Below, piece by piece: positions 2,286 to 63,512 of a stretch of DNA of 64,000 nt. A model generated the notes under the pieces. The model saw only the letters and a list, made by a program, of their open reading frames with translations, was not told the origin of the DNA and did no database searches. The DNA lies in contig CAZCNB010000001.1 of NCBI GenBank assembly GCA_964500465.1, forward strand, positions 34,567 through 98,566, in the 5' to 3' direction. The stretch is from an uncultured Candidatus Saccharibacteria bacterium (GTDB taxonomy: Bacteria; Patescibacteriota; Minisyncoccia; Phycocordibacterales; UBA9973). The stretch's first letter is position 1. Each line of letters opens with the position of its first letter. The translations under genes and the position numbers were made by a program.

Positions 2286-3665
2286 ATGACTAAACGTTCT
2301 GTTGCTTCAAAGAAGCTCTGGAAAATTGGTGCGAAAGAATTTAATACTCAATATTTTGACTTTAATAAAGACGGCGACCTTATCATAAAGGAAGGTCACA
2401 ATATTTATAATGTTCGCTACTTAGCTGATAAGATGGGTACTTCACTTGAAATACTCATGCCTTTTGTTATTGAAGAGAGATTAGAAGACTTGCTCGATAC
2501 AGCTCATGCTCTTTCAAAGAAAACTGGATACAAAGGTAAATTCCTTTATCATTTCCCAATGAAGGTTAATCAAAATAAAGAAGCCGTTATGTCTATTGTA
2601 GGTGAAGGTGCGCATCTTGAAACTTCATCTTACAATGACCTGTATCTGATCAAGAAAATGCTAGAACAAGAATCTTTTAATCCTAATATTCGTATTCTAT
2701 GTAATGGCCCAAAGACCGATAAATACATGAACCTTATTGATGAACTTCAACACAAAGGAATGAAAATTTTTCCAATCATAGAAGGGCCAAATGAACTAAA
2801 ATTTCTTCAGCATTCAAAATACGATGTAGGTATCCGTATAGATATGCCAGTAAAAGCTCAGTCTATTTGGAACAAGCCAATTGATCGCTTTGGATTTTCT
2901 GCGAAAGAAATAATCGCAATGGGGCGCTTTAAGAACTTAAAAATTCTCCACTACCATATTGGTTCACAAATTGAGAAACTTTCTGATGTTATTGTACCTA
3001 TCAAATATGCCCTTGATATTTTCTTTAAATTAAAACAACAAAATCCGTCATTAGACACTCTTGATATTGGTGGAGGAATGCCTATCCCTTATGAGAGAAC
3101 AAAAAGTTATCCAGTAGATAAATTGCTTGAGAAAATATTTGAAGTTGTTAAAAAAGAATCTGAGAAAAGAGGAATGCCACATCCAAATATTATCTGTGAA
3201 TGGGGTCGCTATATTGCAGCACCAGCACAGATAAATATTTATAAAGTTATTGATACAAAAAAGATTCATAGTAAAAAAGCCGAAGCCGATAAATGGTATG
3301 TTATCGATGGTAGTTTTATGAACGACTTATGTGACACATGGGCTATAGGTCAAAAATGGGCAATAGCCCCAGTGAATAATAGCAATGACAAGAACCTCAC
3401 AAATGTCTGGCTTGCAGGATCAACTTGTGACTCAGATGACGTATATACAGGCACAAAGGGTTCTATAGAGCTTCCAGATTATGAAATGGATGAAAGTAAG
3501 CCAATGTATATAGCTGTATTTGATACTGGTGCATATGAAGATGCTCTAGTAATGCACCATTGTCTACTTTCTTCACCACTTAAGATCATTGCAGAAAATG
3601 GGCATATAGTTGTCGCTCGCAAACGTGAGACACCAGAAGAAGTTGGAAAAGTATTTGGTTGGTAA
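2286..3665 (+). CDS. speA: PLP-dependent arginine decarboxylase (fold-type III, SpeA-like)
   Basis: PMKVNQ PLP-lysine motif, DIGGGMPIPY, HYHIGSQ, CEWGRY motifs of Orn/Arg/DAP decarboxylase family; SpeA-like HxGSQ; adjacent agmatinase. Confidence 0.75.
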   Translation: MTKRSVASKKLWKIGAKEFNTQYFDFNKDGDLIIKEGHNIYNVRYLADKMGTSLEILMPFVIEERLEDLLDTAHALSKKTGYKGKFLYHFPMKVNQNKEAVMSIVGEGAHLETSSYNDLYLIKKMLEQESFNPNIRILCNGPKTDKYMNLIDELQHKGMKIFPIIEGPNELKFLQHSKYDVGIRIDMPVKAQSIWNKPIDRFGFSAKEIIAMGRFKNLKILHYHIGSQIEKLSDVIVPIKYALDIFFKLKQQNPSLDTLDIGGGMPIPYERTKSYPVDKLLEKIFEVVKKESEKRGMPHPNIICEWGRYIAAPAQINIYKVIDTKKIHSKKAEADKWYVIDGSFMNDLCDTWAIGQKWAIAPVNNSNDKNLTNVWLAGSTCDSDDVYTGTKGSIELPDYEMDESKPMYIAVFDTGAYEDALVMHHCLLSSPLKIIAENGHIVVARKRETPEEVGKVFGW

Positions 3666-3687
3666 TTATTATTAATAATAAATATAT

Positions 3688-4707
3688 ATGAACAATAATC
3701 TTCCTACATTAGAATTTATTTTAAAAAATTATAAGAATTTCAACGCTCGTGCTACTCGCGATGCACTCATTGCATATTGGAGGCATACAGAAAAAGGTGG
3801 CAAAATGTTCTGGGCTCTTGCTGGAGCTATGTCTTCAGCACAGCTTGGAATAGTTCTTGCTCCAGCTATTCGTGCTGGACTTATATCTGGAATATCATCA
3901 ACGGGTGCAAATCTTGAAGAGTCACTCTTCCGCCTCGTAGCTCATAATTCTTACAAAGATTTTCCAGATTACAGGTACTTCACAAAGGAACATGATACAA
4001 AAATATTAGAAGATAGAATGCGTCGCGTTACAGACACAAGTATTCCAGAAGATGAAGCATTTCGTGCTGTTGAAAAACACATAGTTCCTACATGGAAAGA
4101 AGCAACTGAAAAGGGAACACGTATGTTCTGGCATGAATACTTCTATGATCTTATTCAAAAAATAGACAAAGAAGACCATGAAGGCAAAGCAGATGAATGT
4201 TGGCTTCTTGCGGCAGCAGAGAATAATATTCCAATAGTTGTTCCAGGATATGAAGATTCAACATTTGGAAACATTTTTGCATCACACGTGAAAACTGGTG
4301 AATGCAATGCAAGTATTGTGAAGTCAGGTATTGAATACATGGCTGCTTGGTATGACCAATACAAAAAGTTGTCTGATGGGGAAGGAGTAGGATTCTTCCA
4401 AATTGGTGGAGGTATAGCAGGAGATTTCCCAATCTGCGTAGTGCCATCTATTAAATATGATCTTGGAGAAGATGTTAAACCATGGGCATATTTCTGCCAG
4501 ATTTCCGATTCTACTACCTCATACGGCTCATATTCAGGAGCTACTCCAAACGAAAAAATTACTTGGGATAAACTTACAAAAGACACACCAATGTTTGTTA
4601 TTGAATCAGATGCCACAATAGTTGCTCCACTCATACTCCAAGCCTTACTTGAAATGAAAGCAAATCCAAAAGAGGCGAATGAATTGATTTCAAAATATAC
4701 TGCATAA
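3688..4707 (+). CDS. Deoxyhypusine synthase-like protein (putative homospermidine synthase)
   Basis: SSTGANLEESL, NIPIVVPGYEDSTFGNIF, QIGGGIAGDF, SYSGATPNEKITWDKL align to DHS motifs including catalytic Lys (WxK). Confidence 0.75.
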   Translation: MNNNLPTLEFILKNYKNFNARATRDALIAYWRHTEKGGKMFWALAGAMSSAQLGIVLAPAIRAGLISGISSTGANLEESLFRLVAHNSYKDFPDYRYFTKEHDTKILEDRMRRVTDTSIPEDEAFRAVEKHIVPTWKEATEKGTRMFWHEYFYDLIQKIDKEDHEGKADECWLLAAAENNIPIVVPGYEDSTFGNIFASHVKTGECNASIVKSGIEYMAAWYDQYKKLSDGEGVGFFQIGGGIAGDFPICVVPSIKYDLGEDVKPWAYFCQISDSTTSYGSYSGATPNEKITWDKLTKDTPMFVIESDATIVAPLILQALLEMKANPKEANELISKYTA

Positions 4708-4713
4708 AATAAT

Positions 4714-4740
4714 AAAACCCCCGAATCGGGGGTTTTATTA
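4714..4740. terminator. Bidirectional intrinsic terminator between DHS-like gene and agmatinase
   Basis: aaaacccccgaatcgggggtttt perfect hairpin with A/T tracts both sides. Confidence 0.75.
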
Positions 4741-5625
4741 TTTTAATCTGTCTCTAAATTTATTTGCAATAATACTGTAACAAAGTTGAGCTGCACCATA
4801 CTCAGTCAGCACTGAATCTTTCATAGGGGAGACTTCTACTATATCTGCACCGATAAGATTTTTTTCTTTAACTAAGCGAGTTATAAGCTCCATTCCATAC
4901 CACCATTCAAGACCACCTTGTACAGGCGTACCTGTACCTGGCATATGAGCAGGATCAAAACCATCTACGTCTATAGTAAGATAAACGTTTTTTGTATTTA
5001 TTGAAGCAAGTATTTCATCTATTGTTGGAATTTTATTTGCATTACCCCATTCAAAAACTTTAATATTATTTTTAGGATCACTAAAATAATTATATTCATC
5101 TATTGAATATGTACGGATACCAACTTGGATAAGTTTATAACCGAGCTCATTTCCACGATGAAGAACACATGAGTGAGCGTACTTTGATGGGTGAGTACTA
5201 TAATCGCCATCATTGTCACGAAGGTCACAGTGAGCGTCTATATGAAGTATAGTAGTATCTTTTGCATCTATATGTTTTGCAAGTGCTTGAAATAATCCAA
5301 GTGATACTGAGTGTTCACCACCTAAAAGAAATACAAATTTACCCTCAGAAACAAATTTCTCACACTCAGTTGTTATTTTACTCAATGCTTTTTCTGGAGT
5401 TAATTTATTTATATTACCTAAATCTTTTTGTGCAATTTTTACAAAATTATTCACCTCTTTTTTGTATTCACGATCGAAAAATTCGAGTTTACTATCTAAA
5501 CATTTAAGTATTGCCTTTGGTCCATTGATAGTACCTTTACGACTGGAAGCTGTTTTTTCATAAGGTGCAGACACAATAACAACGTCTGCAGTTTTTGTAT
5601 TTTTTTCATTTAAAATTGAATTCAT
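4738..5625 (-). CDS. speB: Agmatinase (ureohydrolase/arginase family)
   Basis: GGEHS, DAHCDLRD, DVDGFDP, metal-binding motifs of arginase/agmatinase fold. Confidence 0.8.
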   Translation of the reverse strand: MNSILNEKNTKTADVVIVSAPYEKTASSRKGTINGPKAILKCLDSKLEFFDREYKKEVNNFVKIAQKDLGNINKLTPEKALSKITTECEKFVSEGKFVFLLGGEHSVSLGLFQALAKHIDAKDTTILHIDAHCDLRDNDGDYSTHPSKYAHSCVLHRGNELGYKLIQVGIRTYSIDEYNYFSDPKNNIKVFEWGNANKIPTIDEILASINTKNVYLTIDVDGFDPAHMPGTGTPVQGGLEWWYGMELITRLVKEKNLIGADIVEVSPMKDSVLTEYGAAQLCYSIIANKFRDRLK

Positions 5626-10736: not shown

Positions 10737-10834
10737 ATAAGGCTATTATAGCGTTACACTTGCATTTTTCAAAGGTTTTGTGTATTATAGGTCCTGTGGA
10801 AACTCTGTAAATATAGAGTTTTTTATATAAATTT

Positions 10835-11197
10835 ATGGCAACAGCTAAAAAGACTACAAAAAAAGAAAAGGTAGAAAATACAGAATTTGCTGTAATTCTT
10901 ACGGGAGGTAAACAGTATAAAGTTGCTGTTGGTGATATTTTGAAGGTTGAAAAGATGGATGGAGAATACAAAAACGGAGACAAAATTGTTTTTGATAAAG
11001 TACTACTAGTTGATAACGGAACAGATACTACCATAGGCTCACCTTATATTCCTAACGCAAAAGTTGAATCACTGTTTCAAAAAGCAGGACGCGGTAAAAC
11101 AGTAAAAGTTGTTAAGTACAAACAAAAGAGCCGATACCTAAAGCGCAACGGACACAGACAACCATTCATTGAAGTTAAAATCTCAGCAATAAAATAA
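10835..11197 (+). CDS. rplU: Ribosomal protein bL21 with N-terminal Lys-rich extension
   Basis: FAVILTGGKQYKVAVGDILKVEK ... RNGHRQPFIEVKI typical L21. Confidence 0.9.
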   Translation: MATAKKTTKKEKVENTEFAVILTGGKQYKVAVGDILKVEKMDGEYKNGDKIVFDKVLLVDNGTDTTIGSPYIPNAKVESLFQKAGRGKTVKVVKYKQKSRYLKRNGHRQPFIEVKISAIK

Positions 11198-11224
11198 ACT
11201 CCCTAACTCGGGAGTTTATTTTAT
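11196..11224. terminator. Bidirectional intrinsic terminator (rplU / recR)
   Basis: aaactccctaactcgggagttt hairpin flanked by A/T runs. Confidence 0.7.
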
Positions 11225-11839
11225 TTAGGATCTATTTTTCAATGCATTTTTTATAGTTTCACTATCTGAATATTCTAATTCTGTTCCAGTAGAAAGACCT
11301 TTACCTAAAGAGACTATGTTTAAACCGTATTTTTTCTCAACCGATGATAGTGTTTCGCGTAAATACATATCTGTATGTTCTCCCTGTGGATTTAATGATA
11401 AAGCTATTATTATTTCTTTCAAAGTATTTTCTTTTGCTAAATTTTCAACCTTACTAATTAATTCTTTTATTCTCACAAAACTAGGAGTTTCTTTAGTTAC
11501 AATTGGAACTAACCCTCCCAATATAAAGTAAGCACCGCTATAGTTTTTGCTTCTTTTGATACTTTCAAAATCAGCATCTTTTTCTACAATCATTAAAACT
11601 GCTTTATCTGTTTTTGTGCTACTACATGTCTCACATGTAGAGCCTTTTGGTCCTTGAAAAAATAGAAAACAAGATGGACATTGATTTATAGAATTGCGAA
11701 GTGATAAAATTTCATCCCCCAATTCTTTTACATAATTTGGATTTTTATGTAATAAAAAATAAACAAAGCGTTTTGCTTGACGCTCACCAATACCAGGAAA
11801 CTCTTTGAATATTTCTGCTAATTTTTCAATTGGATTCAT
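11225..11839 (-). CDS. recR: Recombination protein RecR
   Basis: HhH N-terminus (FPGIGERQAKR), C4 zinc finger CPSC...CETC, Toprim domain. Confidence 0.9.
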   Translation of the reverse strand: MNPIEKLAEIFKEFPGIGERQAKRFVYFLLHKNPNYVKELGDEILSLRNSINQCPSCFLFFQGPKGSTCETCSSTKTDKAVLMIVEKDADFESIKRSKNYSGAYFILGGLVPIVTKETPSFVRIKELISKVENLAKENTLKEIIIALSLNPQGEHTDMYLRETLSSVEKKYGLNIVSLGKGLSTGTELEYSDSETIKNALKNRS

Positions 11840-42212: not shown

Positions 42213-42620
42213 ATGGCCAATATATCTATTAAAAATATAGCAGAAGCAATATATGAATCCGGAAAAAACAAATCTGGAACTTCACTTGAAAGTACAATGA
42301 AAAATGCTACGAGAATATTGGATGAAAAACATTTATTAAGTAAAGCTCCACAAATTTTAGAAAAACTTCAACAAATTACAGATAAATCTGAAAATGTAGT
42401 AAGGGTAAAAATATATTCAGCTAACAAATTAACTAAAAAGGACATCGATGATATAGAAGAATCAATAAAAAAGAGATGGGGAGCAAAAGAAGTTGAAATG
42501 AGTTTAATAGAAGATAAGGGATTAATAGGCGGAATAAAGATAGAGGTTGGAGACGAAATCATAAATATGACACTTAGAAATAAGTTAGAAAAATTACAAG
42601 ATTATTTAATTAAAAACTAA
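42213..42620 (+). CDS. atpH: ATP synthase subunit delta (short, 135 aa)
   Basis: Operon position between b and alpha; helical. Confidence 0.65.
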
Positions 42621-49538: not shown

Positions 49539-50084
49539 ATGAAAGCAAAATTGATTTCAATACTTATAGGTCTAGCATTAGTAGTCGGAACCGGCACTTT
49601 AGTTTATAAAACAAAAAAACCGGTAGTCTTGCCATCCGATGAGGCTACAGAAAGTCAATCGACTATAAATAATACTAATGGGGTCCAGAATCAAATACCG
49701 GCAAGCAACAATACCACTACAACCTCCAAAAACAAATCTTTGTTCGATGACGACGATGAAGACGATGATGAGGATTTCAAAAGTAGTAGCAATTTAAATA
49801 CTACAGTAGTTACTCCTAAACCAACAACCACTACAACAACTACTACTTCAAGTGGTATTACTCTTACTACAATCGCAAAGCATAACAATAGATCTAGTTG
49901 TTGGTCAGCAGTAAACGGTAACGTATACGATTTAACTAGTTGGATACCAAATCACCCTGGAGGAGAACAAGCAATTTTGTCTATGTGTGGAGTAGATGGA
50001 TCAAATGGATACAATGGTCAACACAGTGGAGGTAAACCAGCTAGAATATTAGCAGGATTTAAAATAGGCACTCTTTCAAAATAA
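49539..50084 (+). CDS. Membrane-anchored cytochrome b5-like heme-binding domain protein with Thr-rich/acidic linker
   Basis: N-terminal TM; HNNRSSCWSAVNGNVYDLTSWIPNHPGG...GQHS matches cyt b5 HPGG motif and both heme-ligand His positions. Confidence 0.65.
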   Translation: MKAKLISILIGLALVVGTGTLVYKTKKPVVLPSDEATESQSTINNTNGVQNQIPASNNTTTTSKNKSLFDDDDEDDDEDFKSSSNLNTTVVTPKPTTTTTTTTSSGITLTTIAKHNNRSSCWSAVNGNVYDLTSWIPNHPGGEQAILSMCGVDGSNGYNGQHSGGKPARILAGFKIGTLSK

Positions 50085-56048: not shown

Positions 56049-56111
56049 TAATCACGATTTGACATGTAATAATATATATGATAAATTGTAGGTCACTAAA
56101 TTAGTTTCCTT

Positions 56112-56219
56112 ATGCGTTTGAACAACAAGCACAACAGAAAGTCCCCGGATAAAATCCGTGGCAACGGTAGCAAAAGAAAGGGTAAAGGTTTCAAAAACAA
56201 AACAAAACCTTACCGTTAA
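56112..56219 (+). CDS. Candidate micro-ORF, 35 aa, extremely basic (MRLNNKHNRKSPDKIRGNGSKRKGKGFKNKTKPYR)
   Basis: Manual translation; embedded in multi-helix RNA structure and followed by strong terminator; may be non-coding. Confidence 0.25.
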   Translation: MRLNNKHNRKSPDKIRGNGSKRKGKGFKNKTKPYR

Positions 56220-56248
56220 AATTATTAAGCCGGGGGTTCAATCAAACA

Positions 56249-56289
56249 GGTCAGCGAAGCATTATGCGAGCTGGCCTTGTTTTTATTTT
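56249..56289 (+). terminator. Intrinsic terminator
   Basis: ggtcagcgaagcattatgcgagctggcc (7-bp stem with G-U) followed by ttgtttttatttt. Confidence 0.65.
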
Positions 56290-56562
56290 GGTTGACATTT
56301 AACCCTTACGAGTATATAAACAAATTAACTAAATCTTTATGTCATGAGGAAGTCAAACACACGCAAAAAAGTACTCCGCTGGATACTTGCGGATTTGCGA
56401 ATCGCATTCAAAAAAGCAAAAATAAGAAAAAAATTAAATGAAGCTTACCATAAAATGATAAACTCAAGACCAAGAATTTACTGGTAAGACTTCCAAAGGG
56501 GGTCAGTGCATATCTGTTTATGATAGATATATACTGGCCCTTTCTTTTGATATAATATAAAA

Positions 56563-56949
56563 ATGAAAAAGTATGAAAAAGAAGTAAGTAAATATCTTAA
56601 AGAAAGGAGTTGGGACAAGTTAAGGCCAGGGGATGTTGCCAAATCTATTTCAATAGAATCTGCTGAACTTCTTGAAATATTTCAATGGACTAATCCGACA
56701 TTGGAAGAAGTAAAAAAAGATAAGGAAAAATTAAAACAGATCCAAAAAGAACTATCGGATGTACTTATTTATTGTTTTAATATGAGTGTACTTTTGAATT
56801 TAGATACAGGAAAAATACTATTAGAAAAATTAAATCAAGTAAAAAAGAAATATCCTGCACATTTATTTAAAAACAGAGATAAAAATATAGATGCAGGCTC
56901 AGAAGAAATTTATTGGAAAATAAAACAAGCTTATAGAAAAAATAAATAA
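56563..56949 (+). CDS. MazG-like nucleotide pyrophosphohydrolase (YpjD-type)
   Basis: EVSKYLKERSW..ESAELLEIFQW all-alpha NTP-PPase pattern; TATAAT 14 nt upstream of start. Confidence 0.65.
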   Translation: MKKYEKEVSKYLKERSWDKLRPGDVAKSISIESAELLEIFQWTNPTLEEVKKDKEKLKQIQKELSDVLIYCFNMSVLLNLDTGKILLEKLNQVKKKYPAHLFKNRDKNIDAGSEEIYWKIKQAYRKNK

Positions 56950-57011: not shown

Positions 57012-57704
57012 TTAAACGATTTCGTACAATTTACTAAGATCGTTATACTCTACATTTCCCCGGAAATATTCGGCGATTTTAGTGTCATAAGCCGCCAAAG
57101 TTTCAAACGTCCTCAGAAAACCCCGGAAACGCTGTGAGAGCGTTGTGTGGCCATGATGAGCGTTAATCTCACCAATGAGTGAATCGTAAGCTTCAGATGT
57201 GTAATCCGGTACTGTCATGACACGGTGGAAGTTTTTTCCAGCAGCTCGTAAAGCTGAAGGTCCGCCTACATCAATATGCCCTCGTGCCACTTCAGCAGTG
57301 ACATCTGCACTTGATATAACTTTTTCAAACGGGTAGAGATCCACCACCACAAGATCAATTGGCACGGCACTTTCTCTGGCCAAATCAGCCTGGTGAGCTT
57401 CTGAAAAAGTTTCAGTGAGATAACCGAGGAAAAACTTATGGTGGAGAGTTTTCACCAACCCTCCATCTGTTTCCGGCATGCCTGTGTATTGTGAAGCTTC
57501 AAACAGACGGCCTTTTGATGTTGAGAGGTCCATCTCTTTATCGAGATGGGTATAAGTTCCGCCGCTTGAAAAAATTTTCAAACCAGGACAGATACTGAGC
57601 AGTTGCTCAACAAGTTGTCCGAGTTGGCTTTTATCATATACTGATATAAAAGCATGCTTAACAGGTACTAAGTCCTGTATTTTTTTTACGTTTCTGATAG
57701 ACAT
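57012..57704 (-). CDS. Stand-alone IMP cyclohydrolase (PurH N-terminal MGS-like) domain protein
   Basis: FISVYDKS, SSGGT, YTGMPETDGGLVKTLHHK, PIDLVVVDLYPF, IDVGGPSALRAAGKN, TLAAYD align to PurH residues 1-200; no AICAR-transformylase domain; local GC clearly above window average. Confidence 0.8.
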   Translation of the reverse strand: MSIRNVKKIQDLVPVKHAFISVYDKSQLGQLVEQLLSICPGLKIFSSGGTYTHLDKEMDLSTSKGRLFEASQYTGMPETDGGLVKTLHHKFFLGYLTETFSEAHQADLARESAVPIDLVVVDLYPFEKVISSADVTAEVARGHIDVGGPSALRAAGKNFHRVMTVPDYTSEAYDSLIGEINAHHGHTTLSQRFRGFLRTFETLAAYDTKIAEYFRGNVEYNDLSKLYEIV

Positions 57705-57816
57705 ACAAAGTGGTTTTATTGTTTTTTGAATTTAAATACTTACTAGTAAATTAGCATTTACTTAATATTTGTCAATTGACACATAAATACCATTCAAGTA
57801 AACTAGGATTATACGT

Positions 57817-57940
57817 ATGATAAAAAATATTTCAAATATAATTGCATTTAACCCGGCACCGACTCCTAGATAGCAGTCGGGGTATATTATTTTTATCATA
57901 TACATTTAAGCGGCCCCGACCAAGAAGGGGTTTTTATTTT
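57817..57940 (+). promoter_or_regulatory. Candidate transcription attenuator: 18-codon leader peptide (MIKNISNIIAFNPAPTPR) plus alternative hairpins and U-tract upstream of ornithine cyclodeaminase
   Basis: Leader ORF 57817-57873 with 3 Pro codons in last 6; hairpin ccgact/agtcgg (57859-57880); 3' arm gtcggg complementary to cccgac (57915-57920); cccc/gggg stem + TTTTTATTTT (57914-57940). Confidence 0.35.
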
Positions 57941-57959
57941 GTAAAATCTCCAAAGCTAA

Positions 57960-58997
57960 ATGTTTAAAACATATAAAATGAAAATTATAACTGAAGAAGT
58001 ATTAACTGAAATAATAAAAAAGCACGGTTTTGAAAACTTTATAAAAGACTTAATGGTAAAGTTGAAGGAAGATTTTTCTAGATGGCAAGAATTCAATAAG
58101 ATTCCTCGTCCGGCTATGCATGTGCCAGGGGGAGTTTTAGAGCTTATGCCTATATGTGACGATAAATACTACACATTTAAGTACGTCAATTGCCATCCTA
58201 AAAATCCTGAATCAAACCTTATGACAGTTGTTGCAACTGGTCAGCTTTCTCGTATAGATACTGGATACCCACTTATGTTTGGGGAAATGACACTAATGAC
58301 TGCACTTCGTACAGCCGCAACTACTGCAATAGCTACAGATTTAATGGCAAGAAATGATAGTACAGTGCTTGCAATAATAGGCACAGGGGCACAGAGTGAA
58401 TTCCTAGTTAAAGCTATTGGAATGGTGCGTGATATCAAAGAAGTCAGGTATTTTGATACAGATACTAATGCGATGGATAAATTTGAGAGAAACATGGAAG
58501 GAAGTTCGTTTAAACTAATTCGTTGCCAAAGTGGAGAAGAAACAGTGTTGGGCGCTGATATAATAACCACATGTACTGCATGTAAAGCAAATGTAGATGT
58601 CTTAAAAAACTCCTGGATAAAAGAAGGGGTTCATATTAATGGAATCGGTGGTGATACGATTGGAAAAACTGAATTGGAATTTGAAATACTATCTAGATGT
58701 AAAATAGTGGTTGAATACTTCGATCAATGTGTTATAGAAGGGGAAATACAACGTTTTAAGAAAGAAGAAGCTCGTAGTAAGGTGTACGCTGAATTAAATG
58801 AGATAATTAGAGGTGAAAAAGAGGTGAGAATTAATGATGAAGATATAACTCTTTATGACTCAGTTGGTATTGGACTTGAAGATTATTCAGTATTAAGATT
58901 TACTTACGAACTAGCTAGTAAATACAATTTAGGAAAAGAATTAAATCTAACTCCAAATATAGCTGACCCTAAAGATTTAATAGGATTATTAAAATAA
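57960..58997 (+). CDS. Ornithine cyclodeaminase / mu-crystallin family enzyme
   Basis: Rossmann IIGTGAQSEF, OCD family N-terminal region. Confidence 0.8.
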   Translation: MFKTYKMKIITEEVLTEIIKKHGFENFIKDLMVKLKEDFSRWQEFNKIPRPAMHVPGGVLELMPICDDKYYTFKYVNCHPKNPESNLMTVVATGQLSRIDTGYPLMFGEMTLMTALRTAATTAIATDLMARNDSTVLAIIGTGAQSEFLVKAIGMVRDIKEVRYFDTDTNAMDKFERNMEGSSFKLIRCQSGEETVLGADIITTCTACKANVDVLKNSWIKEGVHINGIGGDTIGKTELEFEILSRCKIVVEYFDQCVIEGEIQRFKKEEARSKVYAELNEIIRGEKEVRINDEDITLYDSVGIGLEDYSVLRFTYELASKYNLGKELNLTPNIADPKDLIGLLK

Positions 58998-59008
58998 TAA
59001 TTAAACTT

Positions 59009-59347
59009 ATGATAACAATAGATGATTTTGAAAAAGTTGATATTAGATTAGGTAAAGTAATAAACGTAGAAGATTTCCCAGAAGCCAAAAAACCAGCGTA
59101 TAAACTCACAATTGATTTTGGGGCTGAAGTTGGAATCAAGAGGTCTAGTGTACAACTTGTTGGAACATATAAAAAAGAGGAATTAATAGGTATGCTTGTT
59201 TGCTGTGTGATAAATTTCCCACCAAGGCAAGTAGGCCCTTTTATGTCTGAAGTTCTAACTTTAGGATTCAAAAATACAGAAAGCATGGGATATGTACTTA
59301 TAACTCCTTCAAAAAATACTGTACAAATAGGGGATAAACTTTGCTAA
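59009..59347 (+). CDS. csaA: tRNA-binding domain protein (CsaA/Trbp111-like)
   Basis: FEKVDIRLGKVINVEDFPEAKKPAYKLTIDFG ... OB-fold tRNA-binding signature. Confidence 0.75.
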   Translation: MITIDDFEKVDIRLGKVINVEDFPEAKKPAYKLTIDFGAEVGIKRSSVQLVGTYKKEELIGMLVCCVINFPPRQVGPFMSEVLTLGFKNTESMGYVLITPSKNTVQIGDKLC

Positions 59348-59394
59348 TTTGTTAATAATATATTATTCACACAAAGGTTTGATATAATGTATTT

Positions 59395-60267
59395 ATGAAA
59401 GAAGAGTTAAAATTTGGACACCTTAGAAAAGACCTTGAAAGAAATAAGGCAATAGCTACTAAGCACATAGAGGAGGGTGTTACATATGATCAAATTTACG
59501 ATTCTACTTTACACAACATAGGGAGTAGCTTTTCAAAAGTACTACCAGAAAACTATATCACGCATGTAAATAATAATAATGCGGCTAAAATAGAAGATTT
59601 TGGAGAAGCATTTAAAAAATATATAGAAGATACCTTATCAAAAAAAGAAAGTGGTAATAGAACGGCAATAGAATTTGGTGGACCTGGTTCAAAATTATTT
59701 TCTGGATTTTCAAATAGTTTTTTTAGCAAAACAGTTGGAGTTTGTCTTGAAGATCTTCGTCCTGTATATAAAAAAATGAGCGATAGTGAACGAGGGCATT
59801 CTGTCGTAGTGGCTGATATATTAGAAACAAACGATAAAGAAAAATTTACTGAAATTGAAAATAGTTTAGGAAATAGAAAAGTTGATCTTATTGTGTCTCG
59901 ATTAATGGGTCCACTAAATAGTGAGAAAAAAATACAAGGAGCCATTATATTAAAAAGAAATCCAGCTGTTCTAGATAGGGTAATTAGAAAATGGTATAGC
60001 ATGTTAAACGATGGAGGATTACTATTTGCACAATTTGAATATTTTGATGAACACGACCCATATATTGAAAAGAAACGTGAATCAGAACTCAATCAACCTC
60101 CGATCATGGAAATTGAAGAAAATGTTAAAAATTGGGTAAATGAAATAAATAAAAAATTTTCAGACAAAATAGAAATTCAACTTGGAAGAGGTATTATTAG
60201 ATTACTTAAAAAACCTGGGGCACCAGAAGAACTACCAAAAATAACTGAACTATTTAAAGTCAAATAA
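59395..60267 (+). CDS. Putative class I SAM-dependent methyltransferase
   Basis: AIEFGGPGS (motif I-like), VGVCLED (post I), KVDLIVS (motif II), LNDGGLLF (motif III). Confidence 0.45.
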   Translation: MKEELKFGHLRKDLERNKAIATKHIEEGVTYDQIYDSTLHNIGSSFSKVLPENYITHVNNNNAAKIEDFGEAFKKYIEDTLSKKESGNRTAIEFGGPGSKLFSGFSNSFFSKTVGVCLEDLRPVYKKMSDSERGHSVVVADILETNDKEKFTEIENSLGNRKVDLIVSRLMGPLNSEKKIQGAIILKRNPAVLDRVIRKWYSMLNDGGLLFAQFEYFDEHDPYIEKKRESELNQPPIMEIEENVKNWVNEINKKFSDKIEIQLGRGIIRLLKKPGAPEELPKITELFKVK

Positions 60268-60328
60268 AAAAACCGATGCTTTGGAAAGCAGAGCGGTTAA
60301 AAAATTATTTAATATTTTCGGTTTAAAT

Positions 60329-61147
60329 TTAGAAAATTAGTCTATCACCAACTGATATCAGGCCAATTCCTTCATGATTAAAATTTCTCGCAAACACAAC
60401 TCCTTCTTTAGTCCTACGATACTTTGAAAGAGTAAGTAGAGGTTCTTTTCCTTGTTCAGCTGTTATCTGATTTGTGGTGGTGATAGGACACCTCACACAG
60501 AGGTTCATGCCAATAAATTTAACTCCACCTATACTGAAGTCTGGCATTGTATCCTCAAAATATGGATCACAACCGGTGATAACAATGTTTGGCCGAAACC
60601 TATTCATTGGCAATTTCTCTTCAAGCCGGCTATTCAAATCAGCGAGAGAGGAATCAGACACAATCAGAAAAGGGTAAGCATCTGCAAAGCCTAAGTTGGC
60701 ACTGCCAGCTCTGGCTATGCGATTTGCATCATTTGGAATTCTTACTAATCTGTATTTACCAGGTACTTCTCTGGAAAGGTATTCTGTAGCCCATAGAGCT
60801 GCTTGATTACCTTGATCAATTCCTTCTGTAAAAGAATCCCACACTCTAACCGTATGTATTATCACACCCCCATCATCAAGAGGTAATACTAATTCCGGCA
60901 TATCTGGGGCAGTTAAAATTAGACTTTCAGATGTAATTTTTGTACCTATTTTGCACATTATTTTCACACCTTTGGTTCCAACTTTTTTATCGCCCCTTTG
61001 AGCGATGAAAGATCCTTCTTCATTTATAAACATCCAGTTGCGATCGTATTTTAAGCCCATACGACCAACCATTGCTGTGTCCATTGATATACCTGCACAT
61101 GATTTCACAGGATAGAAGTTAATCTCAGATATTCTTATATTTTCCAT
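60329..61147 (-). CDS. MOSC domain protein (beta-barrel N-terminal + MOSC)
   Basis: YPVKSCAG, RFRPNIVI, conserved Cys in GMNLCVRCPITT. Confidence 0.8.
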   Translation of the reverse strand: MENIRISEINFYPVKSCAGISMDTAMVGRMGLKYDRNWMFINEEGSFIAQRGDKKVGTKGVKIMCKIGTKITSESLILTAPDMPELVLPLDDGGVIIHTVRVWDSFTEGIDQGNQAALWATEYLSREVPGKYRLVRIPNDANRIARAGSANLGFADAYPFLIVSDSSLADLNSRLEEKLPMNRFRPNIVITGCDPYFEDTMPDFSIGGVKFIGMNLCVRCPITTTNQITAEQGKEPLLTLSKYRRTKEGVVFARNFNHEGIGLISVGDRLIF

Positions 61148-61214
61148 GATAAGTATTTATTTGGTGAATTAATTTAAAGTGTCATTTAATTTCATACTAT
61201 AATTTACTCAGTAT

Positions 61215-61244
61215 TTGTCAATTTATATATTTAAAATTTGACAA
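61215..61244. repeat. Perfect inverted repeat TTGTCAAATTT-N8-AAATTTGACAA in divergent promoter region
   Basis: Read directly; arms contain TTGACA-like -35 hexamers on both strands. Confidence 0.5.
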
Positions 61245-61366
61245 AAAATATATTTTATTATATTGTAATTTAAAATCTGATATTTGATATTTAGTTTTAT
61301 GGTTCTTAAAGTAGATTATTTAGTCTGTTTTAAGAACTATAAAACTTAAACTACAAAAATCTGATT

Positions 61367-61801
61367 ATGAAAAAAGATGTAAAAAACTTCCTGCTGGGAA
61401 TAAACAATCAATTATCACAACTTGATCTGTCAAAACCACTGACACCTGCACAGGCGAAAGAAGAAGCCATGAGAATTGTTTCGACAATTCCAAACATGGT
61501 GAAAAATTATTTTTTAATGAGGGAACAGATCCAGGTTTCTCCATTTGAAATAACAGTTTATTCCTTATATCAAAAGGAACTGGCAATGAAGGAACCTTTC
61601 GGTGGAGAACCTAAAAATCATTACAAAACCTTTAAAAAGGGTACTGTAGGATATTATCTCTGCCAGTACCTCTATGTCCTGGGATTTTATTTCCGGGTAT
61701 GGTGCGGCAAAATCGATATTTTAATGACATTACTTGGTGGAAGCACCGAGGAAACATTAAACTTTCTTCAACCAATAACCGAAGTAAATATCATTGATTA
61801 A
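61367..61801 (+). CDS. Hypothetical protein
   Basis: ORF only. Confidence 0.3.
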   Translation: MKKDVKNFLLGINNQLSQLDLSKPLTPAQAKEEAMRIVSTIPNMVKNYFLMREQIQVSPFEITVYSLYQKELAMKEPFGGEPKNHYKTFKKGTVGYYLCQYLYVLGFYFRVWCGKIDILMTLLGGSTEETLNFLQPITEVNIID

Positions 61802-61821: not shown

Positions 61822-62262
61822 ATGAAATATGTAAATTGGACACTTTGGGTATCATCTGCCACAATAATACTTATTTTCATTCACCAATTACTGACCAAAA
61901 ACGGAACAAAAAGGCACCGTACAATGGGCTACATTGGAATGGCAGTGGGTGTAATAATATTTATTGTTGTATCAATCAGAGGATTCGCAAACAAAGAAAC
62001 ATTTAACCTGGCTTACGCAGTACATCTGCTTTCGGGTTTTCCTTTCTTTTATTTAATATTCCGTACAGGCTACCTTGGACATAAGGCCAAATATGACTCC
62101 AGGTACGCAAAGCGGCATCGCCGGGTAGCAAAAATTACTGCTATATTACTGGCAATAACACTATTAGTGGGAACAGTGGCAACACTATCCCACAAAAAAA
62201 AGAGTGTAAAAACAGATCAGAACCCCTCTGCTATGCATTGGGGTCTTTTTTATTTTACTTAA
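61822..62262 (+). CDS. Hypothetical 4-TM membrane protein
   Basis: ORF; terminator hairpin cccc...gggg+T-tract overlaps 3' end. Confidence 0.35.
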   Translation: MKYVNWTLWVSSATIILIFIHQLLTKNGTKRHRTMGYIGMAVGVIIFIVVSIRGFANKETFNLAYAVHLLSGFPFFYLIFRTGYLGHKAKYDSRYAKRHRRVAKITAILLAITLLVGTVATLSHKKKSVKTDQNPSAMHWGLFYFT

Positions 62263-62285: not shown

Positions 62286-63512
62286 ATGAGAGATAACGTC
62301 ACTCAAAATTTATTCCTTCACGCCGATGGAGATTCATTCTTCGTCGCTTGTGAATTAGTTGTAAACCCACAATATAAGGGTTTACCTGTAGTTGTTGGAG
62401 AAGACAGGGGAATAGCTGTAGCTATGAGTTACGAAGCAAAGAAACTCGGTGTAACTCGCGGTATGCCAGTATTTAAGATAAAGAAACAATTCCCACAAGT
62501 TATTATACTTCCGCATCATTTTGACCTATACAGAGAAATTTCAAGTAGTGTTTATGATATTCTTTCGTCCTACTTAGTTGAAGTTGAGCAATACAGTATC
62601 GACGAATGTTTTGCACTGGTAAAGCCTTCTGATATCACACACGCAGGTGGAGCTAATAAACTATTGAAGGATATTAAAAATGAGATTGAAAAGAAACTCG
62701 GAGTAACATTCTCTCTAGGACTTGCACGCACAAAAGCTTTGGCTAAAACTGCTTCGAAATTAGAGAAACCAAATGGCATTGTATTACTTATGAATAATAA
62801 TGACGAAGAGCAGGCTTTAAAAAAGACAGCTATTGAAGATGTTTGGGGTATTGGAAGACGTACCGTACCAAGATTACTTTCAATGGGAATAAAAACTGCA
62901 TATGATTTTGTGCATTACCCAAGTAGTACTATAGAGAAAAACTTTTTCGAACCATTAGTTTTACTACAACAAGAACTTGCAGGTATATCACACTATGACA
63001 TTGATTCGAATCCCGATCCGAGAGATCAGAAATCTATTCAATCAACTGCAACATTTAAACCATCGTCTTCTGATCCAAAGATAATATTTGCGGAACTTTC
63101 AGAAAATGTAGAGCACGCATGTGAACATGCTAGAGAACTTGATCTAATGACAAACTCTGTTTCTTTATTTATTAAAAATACTGAGTTTATACATAGGACA
63201 GGAGATACACATCTATCAGTTTATACATGCGATCCAAGTATAATACTAAACGCAATCGAACCTGTGTTTTACAAAATATTACGAAAAGGGGAAATGATTC
63301 GCTCAACTGGAATAACATTACAAAATTTACGTCGTAGTGAAGACGTACCTCAAGATTTATTTGGTGCACAAAAGAAATCAGAAGCAAAAGATGTAATTGA
63401 AAGAGTAGGGGATTTAATAAGAAAAAAATTTGGCCATAACGCACTTAAACGCGCATCCTCACTAAAGGGACAAGGGAGAAAAAGAGGGAATTCTTTTCCT
63501 GGGACAAGATAA
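62286..63512 (+). CDS. dinB: Y-family DNA polymerase IV
   Basis: LHADGDSFFVACE, VAMSYEAKKLGV, SIDECF catalytic motifs. Confidence 0.85.
   Translation: MRDNVTQNLFLHADGDSFFVACELVVNPQYKGLPVVVGEDRGIAVAMSYEAKKLGVTRGMPVFKIKKQFPQVIILPHHFDLYREISSSVYDILSSYLVEVEQYSIDECFALVKPSDITHAGGANKLLKDIKNEIEKKLGVTFSLGLARTKALAKTASKLEKPNGIVLLMNNNDEEQALKKTAIEDVWGIGRRTVPRLLSMGIKTAYDFVHYPSSTIEKNFFEPLVLLQQELAGISHYDIDSNPDPRDQKSIQSTATFKPSSSDPKIIFAELSENVEHACEHARELDLMTNSVSLFIKNTEFIHRTGDTHLSVYTCDPSIILNAIEPVFYKILRKGEMIRSTGITLQNLRRSEDVPQDLFGAQKKSEAKDVIERVGDLIRKKFGHNALKRASSLKGQGRKRGNSFPGTR

Follow-up and report, generated by a model that had tools for sequence, protein, structure and literature searches.

An unfused PurJ/PurH2-type IMP cyclohydrolase predicted in a stretch of CPR chromosome, with an old compositional bias in its gene

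The 64-kb stretch of DNA analysed here (the window), from a small-genome bacterium of the CPR (Patescibacteria) type, carries on its minus strand, at 57012..57704, a gene for a 230-aa protein that PurH profiles, PDB matches, AF2/Foldseek comparisons, conserved residues and dN/dS point to as a stand-alone, purJ/purH2-type IMP cyclohydrolase. Convergent with purJ lies a plus-strand gene for a MazG-like NTP pyrophosphohydrolase (56563..56949; Pfam PF12643, 42.9 bits). On the other side, plus-strand genes encode an ornithine cyclodeaminase (OCD, 57960..58997; NCBIfam NF005762, 417 bits with a cut-off of 350; E 3e-78 to the P. putida OCD 1x7d), a CsaA-like tRNA-binding-domain protein (59009..59347; NF007494, 138 bits with a cut-off of 109, and TIGR02222, 136 bits) and ORF290 (59395..60267). 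They are followed on the minus strand by the gene of a mARC/YcbX-like MOSC_N and MOSC protein (60329..61147; Pfam, 78 and 71 bits), which matches human mARC1 with E 1e-34, the Mo-ligand Cys motif being aligned (CVRCPITT vs CSRCILTT). Further along the plus strand lie ORF144 (61367..61801), with no Pfam or NCBIfam match, the small membrane protein ORF146 (61822..62262; weak DUF420/DUF2231-like matches) and a DinB-type Y-family DNA polymerase IV with IMS, IMS_C and IMS_HHH domains (62286..63512).

The five genes from purJ to MOSC are all present where a preliminary description of this DNA had placed them. Its methyltransferase label for ORF290 finds support at the level of fold, in that the AF2 model of this 290-aa protein (pLDDT 86) has only SAM methyltransferases as top Foldseek matches, at TM of only 0.3-0.4, which suggests a class-I methyltransferase-like fold; no Pfam or NCBIfam match backs the label. 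ORF290 belongs to a CPR-only family of 51 proteins, whose members adjoin purJ at the related loci L093 and L092 and at none of the 40 other family loci. At L092, a homologue of ORF146 comes after that of ORF290.

The purJ protein aligns only to positions 4-197 of 510 of the PurH equivalog profiles of NCBIfam, as expected from the IMPCH-only fragment described before, and matches the first 62 columns of Pfam PF01808. Its PDB sequence matches are the N-domains of ATIC/PurH (E ~1e-22) and also ForH. The AF2 model (pLDDT 92.4) superposes on the N-domain of human ATIC (1pkx) with a TM of 0.78 and an rmsd of 1.7 Å, the range over human ATIC and M. tuberculosis PurH being TM 0.78-0.79 and rmsd 1.7-2.3 Å. 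In an alignment of 32 family members, K85, Y124, D145 and K157 (human K66, Y104, D125 and K137) are invariant, and the SGGT and S-x-x-D-K loops are kept throughout; the catalytic set and the phosphate-binding loops are those of the PurH/ATIC N-domain. Taken together, family, predicted fold and active site identify 57012-57704(-) as the gene of a genuine IMP cyclohydrolase, unfused and of PurJ/PurH2 type. Its reaction is most likely the closure of FAICAR to IMP.

A truncated remnant of a bifunctional purH in the course of decay could also leave a gene that covers only the N-terminal two-fifths of the PurH profile and scores 153 bits against a full-length cut-off of 402. This pseudogene reading, to which we give practically no credence, is refuted by the data on selection and conservation. 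The ORF is intact, its start and stop agree with those of more than 100 homologues of equal length, all catalytic residues are kept in a confidently predicted fold, and no AICARFT remnants were found 3' of the gene. Moreover, the dN/dS of purJ against its relatives is 0.043-0.048, and the gene is under strong purifying selection.

The preliminary description called a stand-alone IMPCH unexpected. The class, together with the purJ/purV combination, had however been described by Cruz et al. 2019 (PMC6486802), and Hunter et al. 2019 (PMC6797443) characterised the unfused PurH2 AF1811 of A. fulgidus, which turns FAICAR into IMP and is able to complement E. coli; the gene in the window adds a CPR member to this known class. 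Homologues of purJ fall into more than 1,100 clusters, with lengths of 223-240 aa for almost all of the best 120. In Desulfobacterota, whose loci have a 416-aa AICARFT-only gene directly downstream of purJ in 60 of 68 cases (a split purH), Desulfobacterales members from such purJ-purV operons are about 50% identical to the window protein. In our tree, PurJ of CPR and DPANN form one clade apart from the purV-linked Desulfobacterota/PVC clade, and the window protein nests deep within a CPR-specific clade; no description of the CPR/DPANN sub-clade was found in the literature searched.

CPR/DPANN purJ genes are usually solitary. There is no AICARFT beside purJ, as the preliminary description held, nor elsewhere in the window, judging from tblastn searches in which AICARFTs of two divergent types were the queries and from Pfam scans that covered almost every ORF from ~130 aa upwards (a few, e.g. 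42213-42620, 135 aa, excepted). The same searches found no other pur gene in the window, PurP and PurO included, and neither a ZTP nor a purine riboswitch was found ahead of purJ. Among the ~13 CPR/DPANN lineages examined, AICARFT lies within ±10 kb of purJ in a single one (locus L010), where a short, PurV-type gene is convergent with it. The FAICAR that PurJ would close would be supplied by an AICAR formyltransferase whose gene lies beyond the window, for example of the short PurV type seen at L010.

At CPR loci, purJ seldom has such a partner (purV, purP or purH) close by. CPR bacteria are generally reported to be without nucleotide biosynthesis (e.g. PMC12281837), so that the partner may be absent and the physiological substrate a different one. 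The CPR/DPANN clade would then work without AICAR formyltransferase or de novo purine pathway, as a salvage or nucleotide-repair enzyme acting on imported or salvaged FAICAR, on its riboside after phosphorylation, or on a related ring-opened or formamido nucleotide. The lack of AICARFT in the window and within ±10 kb in 12 of 13 lineages is consistent with this, as are the separation of this clade from the purV-linked one and the frequent presence, across CPR/DPANN loci, of neighbours of nucleotide 'house-cleaning' or phosphatase type (MazG-like, NUDIX, HAD, NT5C, His_Phos_1). Stand-alone ForH, in addition, is an example of this fold having been put to use in closing a different heterocycle. 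On the other hand, the active-site and ligand-binding residues are those of the purV-linked Desulfobacterota members, including a family-wide R64-to-L change, so that there is no sign of a new specificity. The purJ at L010, which is paired with AICARFT, belongs to the same clade; other CPR encode a full bifunctional PurH and purC; and the neighbour associations vary from lineage to lineage. In published complete genomes, moreover, purJ usually lies apart from its partner: purJ does not adjoin other pur genes in 34 of 50 cases, and 48 of the 50 bacterial genomes with purJ also have purV or purH (PMC6486802). We regard an orphan function as a minority reading, with perhaps one chance in a few.

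Regarding base composition, purJ is a single strong outlier. Its GC of 0.431, for which ~45% had been estimated by eye, compares with 0.336±0.033 over the 63 genes of at least 100 aa (z=2.9) and is the highest in the window, as is its GC3 (0.368, z=3.1); by GC it is within the top 0.16% of 693-nt windows. Codon usage (z of 8.3) is broadly shifted to G/C, with CTC accounting for 43% of Leu codons vs 6%. The MOSC gene is mildly raised in GC (0.387, z 1.5) and ordinary in codon usage, and OCD (0.339), the CsaA-like gene (0.330) and ORF290 (0.305) are within ±1.2 sd. Raised GC3 (z ~2.5) recurs in ORF144 (0.345; codon z 4.1) and ORF146 (0.333), beyond the block described before.

The preliminary description had seen 57.0-61.2 kb as a higher-GC island and taken this as suggestive of horizontal acquisition. 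In one reading, purH-N, OCD, CsaA, methyltransferase and MOSC would have come jointly and recently from a GC-richer donor. In favour of this are the deviation of purJ, the mild rise in MOSC, ORF144 and ORF146, a synteny with the closest relative that ends exactly upstream of purJ, and the lack of OCD, CsaA, MOSC and ORF144 in the purJ neighbourhoods of relatives. The composition is not uniform, with only purJ deviating strongly, and no continuous higher-GC island is present. The block has a GC of 0.350 vs 0.334 for the whole window, a value equalled or exceeded by 13% of sliding windows of the same length (up to 0.373 in the ATP-synthase operon); three of its five genes are compositionally native, and genes with raised GC alternate with native-looking ones. 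Tetranucleotide profiles of 2-kb windows over 55.5-64 kb stay at |z|<2. No tRNA gene near the block and no repeats bounding it were found, nor any integrase-type domain in Pfam scans of the window ORFs.

Synteny and phylogeny also argue against a recent import. Synteny with L002 spans 49.3 to 57.7 kb and takes in purJ, its promoter and the MazG-like gene. The MazG-like gene, with a 90% identical orthologue at the same position in L001-L003, is the sole purJ neighbour kept in the closest relative. Sister lineages with PurJ proteins 65-87% identical share the GC and codon bias, the MazG-like neighbour and the promoter, and the excess of GC and of CTC/CTG Leu codons is common to the purJ sub-clade; hence there was no recent transfer, and any transfer would be old and within CPR. 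The GC excess of purJ is a long-standing feature of its sub-clade and not a sign of recent acquisition. The codon shift resembles the effect of a foreign origin more than that of selection on translation, so that an old intra-CPR transfer may have taken place. A recent island, largely refuted by composition and by the synteny and phylogeny of purJ, is thus very improbable.

Upstream of purJ, the promoter core, a -35 TTGACA with a conserved spacer (AATATTAAGTAAAT, 57756..57775, minus strand, 52 nt upstream of the ATG), is kept at the same position in L001-3, L093, L004 and L092 with 1-3 mismatches. A second copy of this 20-mer, with 2 mismatches, lies 55 nt upstream of the MOSC ATG (61202..61221, minus strand), where it forms TTGACA-16-TAGTAT. 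The window holds only these two copies, and none of 100 shuffles contained any match with up to 2 mismatches. Given the shared 20-mer, purJ and MOSC may not be fully independent, and their co-regulation is possible.

This bears on the link to MOSC and dinB raised in the preliminary description, which is weak in its genomic context and gains from the 20-mer. In its fullest form, purJ and the mARC-like MOSC protein would be a co-regulated pair acting against aberrant purines (such as bases or nucleotides that are N-hydroxylated or ring-opened), a role into which dinB and the MazG-like gene close by would fit. purJ and MOSC share the minus strand and a raised GC, with the 20-mer at much the same distance upstream, and the Mo-Cys of the mARC-like protein is conserved; a MazG-like or NUDIX gene adjoins purJ in the closest relatives, and dinB does so in one other lineage (L015/L091). 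However, the latter association amounts to 2 of ~11 lineages, and neither MOSC nor OCD or CsaA is near purJ at any of 15 CPR/DPANN loci tested or in two further relatives. The motif belongs to purJ ancestrally, and a mere copying event may account for its second occurrence; no biochemical precedent is known for IMPCH in base-analogue detoxification. We consider such a pair unlikely.

Our findings allow us to propose, as the probable account, that this is an ordinary stretch of CPR chromosome with a functional, naturally unfused PurJ/PurH2-type IMP cyclohydrolase, neighbours that are independent of it, and a purJ GC content that is an old trait of the sub-clade. The gene descends vertically within a CPR clade, and OCD, the CsaA-like gene, ORF290 and MOSC would have been assembled beside it through lineage-specific rearrangement, as neither a functional nor a transferred unit.

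Among known systems, the window protein most resembles PurJ and PurH2 (AF1811), free-standing homologues of the PurH N-terminus of ~200-230 aa with the same catalytic residues; it differs in belonging to a CPR/DPANN sub-clade, in having no purV, purP or purH within 64 kb, and in that its activity is a predicted one. With the IMPCH domain of PurH/ATIC (human 1pkx/1p4r, M. tuberculosis 3zzm) it shares the MGS-like fold, K66/Y104/D125/K137 and the SGGT and SxxDK loops, whereas it is unfused to AICARFT, only ~31-36% identical, and changed from R64 to L and from 'LHPK' to 'LHHK' family-wide and from S12 to Y in the window protein itself. ForH of formycin biosynthesis (PDB 6nko), another stand-alone PurH-N homologue, has an unfused IMPCH fold of similar length (TMt 0.84 to the purJ model), but only 27-28% identity (E 1.7e-9), and sits in a C-nucleoside antibiotic cluster of a kind that the window lacks. 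The archaeal-type IMP cyclohydrolase PurO would carry out the same reaction in organisms without fused PurH, although with a non-homologous fold, and Pfam scans found none in the window. Finally, the locus recalls horizontally acquired genomic islands in that a single gene departs in GC and codon usage and synteny breaks off next to it; unlike these, it shows no block-wide shift, nearby tRNA gene, integrase-type domain or bounding repeats, and it is precisely the deviant gene, purJ, that keeps its synteny and is native by phylogeny.

The gene at 57012-57704(-), purJ, encodes a 230-aa stand-alone IMP cyclohydrolase (IMPCH), the counterpart of the N-domain that in PurH/ATIC converts FAICAR to IMP. 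As the preliminary description had held, only this domain is present: matches to the PurH equivalog profiles are confined to their N-terminus (positions 4-197 of 510 in NF002049 and 1-193 of 511 in TIGR00355), and the N-domains of solved ATIC/PurH structures match the protein with E ~1e-22 in a PDB search. The ORF ends in a stop after 230 aa, and no domain of the other PurH half, the AICAR formyltransferase (AICARFT) that turns AICAR into FAICAR, is found in frame or downstream. With a dN/dS of 0.04-0.05 against its relatives, the ORF is both intact and strongly constrained and is therefore not a truncated pseudogene.

Human ATIC numbering was transferred to the window protein through a HMMER alignment, together with a 32-member family alignment. 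K85, Y124, D145 and K157, invariant among the 32 members, correspond to human ATIC K66, Y104, D125 and K137, which we take to be the catalytic residues, with roles as in the ATIC literature. The phosphate loops are also kept, as S47-G-G-T50 (SGGT) and S21-x-x-D24-K25 (S-x-x-D-K). At the position of human R64 the whole PurJ family carries Leu, including members linked to purV, the gene for the unfused form of AICARFT.

The composition of purJ sets it apart from its surroundings. The window has a GC content of 0.334, and its 63 ORFs of at least 100 aa have a gene GC of 0.336±0.033 and a GC3 of 0.218±0.048. Among these ORFs purJ is the top outlier (GC 0.431, z 2.9; GC3 0.368, z 3.1), with the second highest codon-usage deviation (z 8.3), and it falls within the top 0.16% of 693-nt windows by GC. 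Because its codons are shifted broadly to G/C (CTC, GGC, CCG, CGG, GTG) and the highly biased atpD stays low in GC3, translational selection is rejected as the sole cause of its high GC3.

The preliminary description had read this deviation as a higher-GC island at 57.0-61.2 kb, formed by purJ, OCD, a CsaA-like gene, a 290-aa ORF (ORF290) and a MOSC gene. Deviant composition stands for purJ and, mildly, for the MOSC gene (GC 0.387, z 1.5; codon usage ordinary), but not for the other three of the five block genes, which lie within ±1.2 sd (OCD 0.339, CsaA-like 0.330, ORF290 0.305). Taken as a whole, 57012-61147 has a GC of 0.350, a value equalled or exceeded in 13% of equal-length windows, with up to 0.373 in the ATP-synthase operon, and from 55.5 to 64 kb no 2-kb window stands out in its tetranucleotide profile (|z|<2). 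No tRNA target lies near the block, the tRNA genes of the window being at 24.7 and 40.1 kb only; Pfam scans of nearly all window ORFs of ~130 aa or more gave no integrase-type domain; and no repeats bound the block, only short chance-level ones being present, a promoter 20-mer excepted. The 57.0-61.2 kb stretch is not a horizontally acquired island: one GC-rich gene was mistaken for one. Just outside the claimed block, ORF144 (61367-61801(+)) and ORF146 (61822-62262(+)) have raised GC3 values of 0.345 and 0.333, respectively, with deviant codon usage (z ~4).

The descent of purJ gives no support to the horizontal acquisition that its GC had suggested. In a neighbour-joining tree of 144 sequences, built without bootstrap, carrying few taxon labels and with N-domains of bifunctional PurH from CPR as its root, the PurJ family divides into a Desulfobacterota plus PVC clade and a DPANN plus CPR clade, and the window PurJ sits deep inside the CPR part of the latter. 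This tree, in which purJ is the one gene of the supposed cargo covered, shows no phylogenetic incongruence. The GC excess and an unusual CTC/CTG Leu usage are common to a sub-clade comprising the window, its closest relative (locus L002) and the purJ loci L093, L004 and L092, whereas more distant CPR purJ genes have neither. Since the bias is sub-clade-wide, any transfer of purJ would be older than these lineages and within CPR; this genome did not gain purJ recently.

The closest relative shares 87% amino-acid identity in PurJ (78% in nucleotides), and its locus is colinear with the window over 49.3-57.74 kb, covering a DEAD helicase, a csp gene, a MazG-like gene and purJ. The MazG-like gene and purJ are thus syntenic, and OCD, CsaA, MOSC and ORF144 are missing from the purJ neighbourhoods of relatives, which may reflect either an insertion or a rearrangement. 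A 514-nt non-coding stretch (56049-56562) separates the DEAD helicase from the MazG-like gene and is conserved with positions 2384-2848 of the closest relative's locus; at the equivalent place the relative has an extra metallo-beta-lactamase-fold gene, which the window lacks.

Regarding the neighbours themselves, profile scores and domain matches bear out three of the earlier labels. The product of OCD (57960-58997(+)) scores 417 bits against an equivalog cut-off of 350 (NF005762) and matches P. putida OCD (1x7d) with E 3e-78; the 112-aa CsaA-like protein (59009-59347(+)) lies above the tRNA-binding/CsaA cut-offs; and the 272-aa MOSC protein (60329-61147(-)) carries the Pfam domains MOSC_N (78.3 bits) and MOSC (71.3 bits). 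The last is mARC-like, matching human mARC1 with E 1e-34 and aligning its CxRC Mo-ligand Cys motif. Eukaryotic mARC takes electrons from cytochrome b5, and a cytochrome-b5-domain protein (49539-50084(+)) is encoded in the same window. A polyamine cluster at 2286-5625 encodes an Orn/Arg decarboxylase, a deoxyhypusine-synthase-like protein and an agmatinase-family protein; this cluster and OCD suggest an active arginine/ornithine metabolism.

ORF290 (59395-60267(+)) had been called a methyltransferase. It has no Pfam or NCBIfam match, and its family, apparently confined to CPR, counts only 51 members of ~275 aa, the sole named one from the CPR class Minisyncoccia. Its AF2 model (pLDDT 86) has class-I SAM methyltransferases for all its top Foldseek matches, with probability 1.0 but TM of 0.3-0.4 and identity of 10-16%, so that the label may be kept as a guess at the level of the fold. 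The alignment of the family (A2) holds E93, G95, G96, C117, D120, H135 and W200 invariant, and the invariant 'EFGGPGS' and D120 resemble methyltransferase motifs I and II. The element TGATATAAT (repeat D4) lies only 6-7 nt upstream of the ORF290 start codon and likewise of the start of the MazG-like gene, which suggests leaderless transcripts.

ORF290 adjoins purJ in two other loci, divergently in L093 and convergently in L092, where a homologue of ORF146, a membrane protein, follows it. A functional linkage was rejected: none of 40 further ORF290 loci holds purJ, and the adjacency therefore reflects local synteny. The 15 CPR/DPANN purJ loci tested, and L092 and L093 as well, have no OCD, CsaA, MOSC or ORF144 near purJ, and no relative of ORF144 was detected in any locus examined. 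Compared with L093 and L092, the gene order of the window looks like purJ-ORF290-ORF146 with OCD plus CsaA and MOSC plus ORF144 interposed. As for dinB (62286-63512(+)), it occurs next to purJ in one other lineage only.

A 20-mer consisting of a -35 box and spacer, TTGACAAATAYTRAGTAAAT, lies at 57756-57775(-), 52 nt 5' of the purJ ATG, and again at 61202-61221(-), 55 nt 5' of the MOSC ATG. These are its only two occurrences in the window, a comparable match appeared in 0 of 100 shuffles, and the element is kept upstream of purJ in four relatives. It could reflect a promoter duplication or shared regulation of purJ and MOSC. In the OCD leader (57806-57959(+)), a terminator-like hairpin, CCCCgaccaagaaGGGG, with a T-run behind it, lies ~25 nt ahead of the start codon; a structured leader was dismissed, the fold z of -1.4 being not significant and Rfam giving no match. 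A ZTP or purine riboswitch 5' of purJ was also discarded: Rfam scans, by E-value over 52-64 kb and at gathering thresholds over the whole window, returned two tRNAs only, plus chance matches at the csp terminator.

The absence of an AICARFT beside purJ was confirmed and extended, since tblastn with two types of PurV, the 416-aa Desulfobacterales and the 348-aa CPR protein, found none anywhere in the 64-kb window. Pfam scans of nearly all window ORFs of ~130 aa or more gave no PurP or PurO, nor any pur gene other than purJ. The other genes are typical of a CPR chromosome: aminoacyl-tRNA synthetases, FtsW/MurG, non-oxidative pentose-phosphate genes, GAPDH, aldolase, F-ATPase and the polyamine cluster. 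The window also holds no second or degenerate copy of PurJ, such as the 241-aa tandem paralogue (31% identity) directly 5' of the intact purJ in the complete CPR genome OW818634.1 (9120-9845 of its locus, L006); that copy has the K66, Y104 and K137 equivalents substituted and is confined to its lineage.

The homology search gave 1,103 clusters of PurJ homologues, and of the 120 best nearly all are 223-240 aa long. Species-representative genomes hold at least 587 relatives, from which 80 loci were retained, the closest relatives being taken from the protein index only. Among these 80 are 68 loci from Desulfobacterota, 60 of which have a 416-aa AICARFT-only gene directly 3' of purJ; Cruz et al. 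(PMC6486802) described this purJ-purV arrangement. In CPR/DPANN loci purJ is usually solitary: no AICARFT occurs within ±10 kb in L001-L007, L009, L011-L015, L091, L092 or L214. The exception is L010, where a 348-aa short AICARFT (10779-11825(-)) is convergent to purJ. Among the matches listed, this short type (~350 aa) stands alone in CPR, Nitrospiraceae and Thermodesulfovibrionales, and Moraniibacteriota, Paceibacterota and Falkowbacteria have it fused into a ~535-aa PurH; identity between the short type and the 416-aa Desulfobacterales PurV is only ~25%. One CPR genome has purC 7 kb from the fused short-type PurH. Co-occurrence of PurJ and PurV judged from equal-sized contigs was set aside, a single pair (P0033/P0124, 16,704 bp) appearing among the best 120 listed, and so was carriage of the family by phages, as viral contigs hold only purH-like genes of 34-40% identity, outside the family. 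In L091, a 656-kb CPR contig, at least eight successive genes for ~480-aa PEP-utilizers proteins (PF00391; 1-9803) lie directly 5' of purJ, which is followed by dinB, LexA and a DEAD helicase.

This near absence of AICARFT genes around CPR/DPANN purJ is one ground for the main rival reading, that of an orphan PurJ acting on a scavenged or damage-derived substrate. CPR are also generally reported to lack nucleotide synthesis (PMC12281837), and nucleotide hydrolases (MazG-like, NUDIX, HAD, NT5C) recur beside purJ. The active site of CPR PurJ is, however, unchanged with respect to purV-linked members. In its fullest form, this rival makes CPR/DPANN PurJ a true orphan in ultra-small symbionts lacking AICARFT and the de novo pathway, cyclising a formamido-imidazole nucleotide (host FAICAR or a ring-opened purine nucleotide) to a usable purine nucleotide and, here, co-regulated through the shared promoter element with a mARC-like N-reductase, the two forming an unrecognised step of purine salvage or sanitation; we consider this improbable.

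The best-supported reading, we infer, is that the window PurJ would cyclise FAICAR to IMP, like other PurJ/PurH2 enzymes, with FAICAR probably supplied by an AICAR formyltransferase encoded outside the window. For the unfused PurH2 AF1811, both the FAICAR-to-IMP reaction and complementation of E. coli have been demonstrated (PMC6797443). An AICARFT elsewhere in the genome would be expected because 48 of 50 purJ carriers among published complete genomes also hold purV or purH, most purJ genes being non-adjacent (PMC6486802), and because L010 pairs a CPR PurJ from this clade with PurV.

These findings document at least three CPR solutions for the last purine steps, namely a fused short PurH, PurJ accompanied by a short PurV, and PurJ with no AICARFT within ±10 kb, and they give Patescibacteria and DPANN a well-conserved PurJ clade of their own in common, with purJ usually not beside AICARFT. 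Our literature search for CPR forms of purH or IMP cyclohydrolase returned nothing specific. Several JGI names for the homologous clusters label the PurJ class as bifunctional PurH, and such mislabelling by automated pipelines can inflate the purine-biosynthetic capacity inferred for CPR. Were complete genomes to hold no partner for purJ, this would speak for obligate symbionts using IMP cyclohydrolase in salvage or repair, and would bear on what their hosts supply. The ordinary reading, FAICAR to IMP, is the most likely, and the main value of the analysis then lies in correcting the over-reading of an island and of an "unexpected" truncated purH.

With respect to known systems, Foldseek aligns the AF2 model of the window PurJ (pLDDT 92.4) with human ATIC (1pkx) at a TM of 0.78 and an rmsd of 1.7 Å, and with the stand-alone homologue ForH at a TMt of 0.84. 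The protein that had seemed an unexpected fragment belongs with the PurJ/PurH2 proteins already described, as a CPR/DPANN-clade example of that enzyme class.
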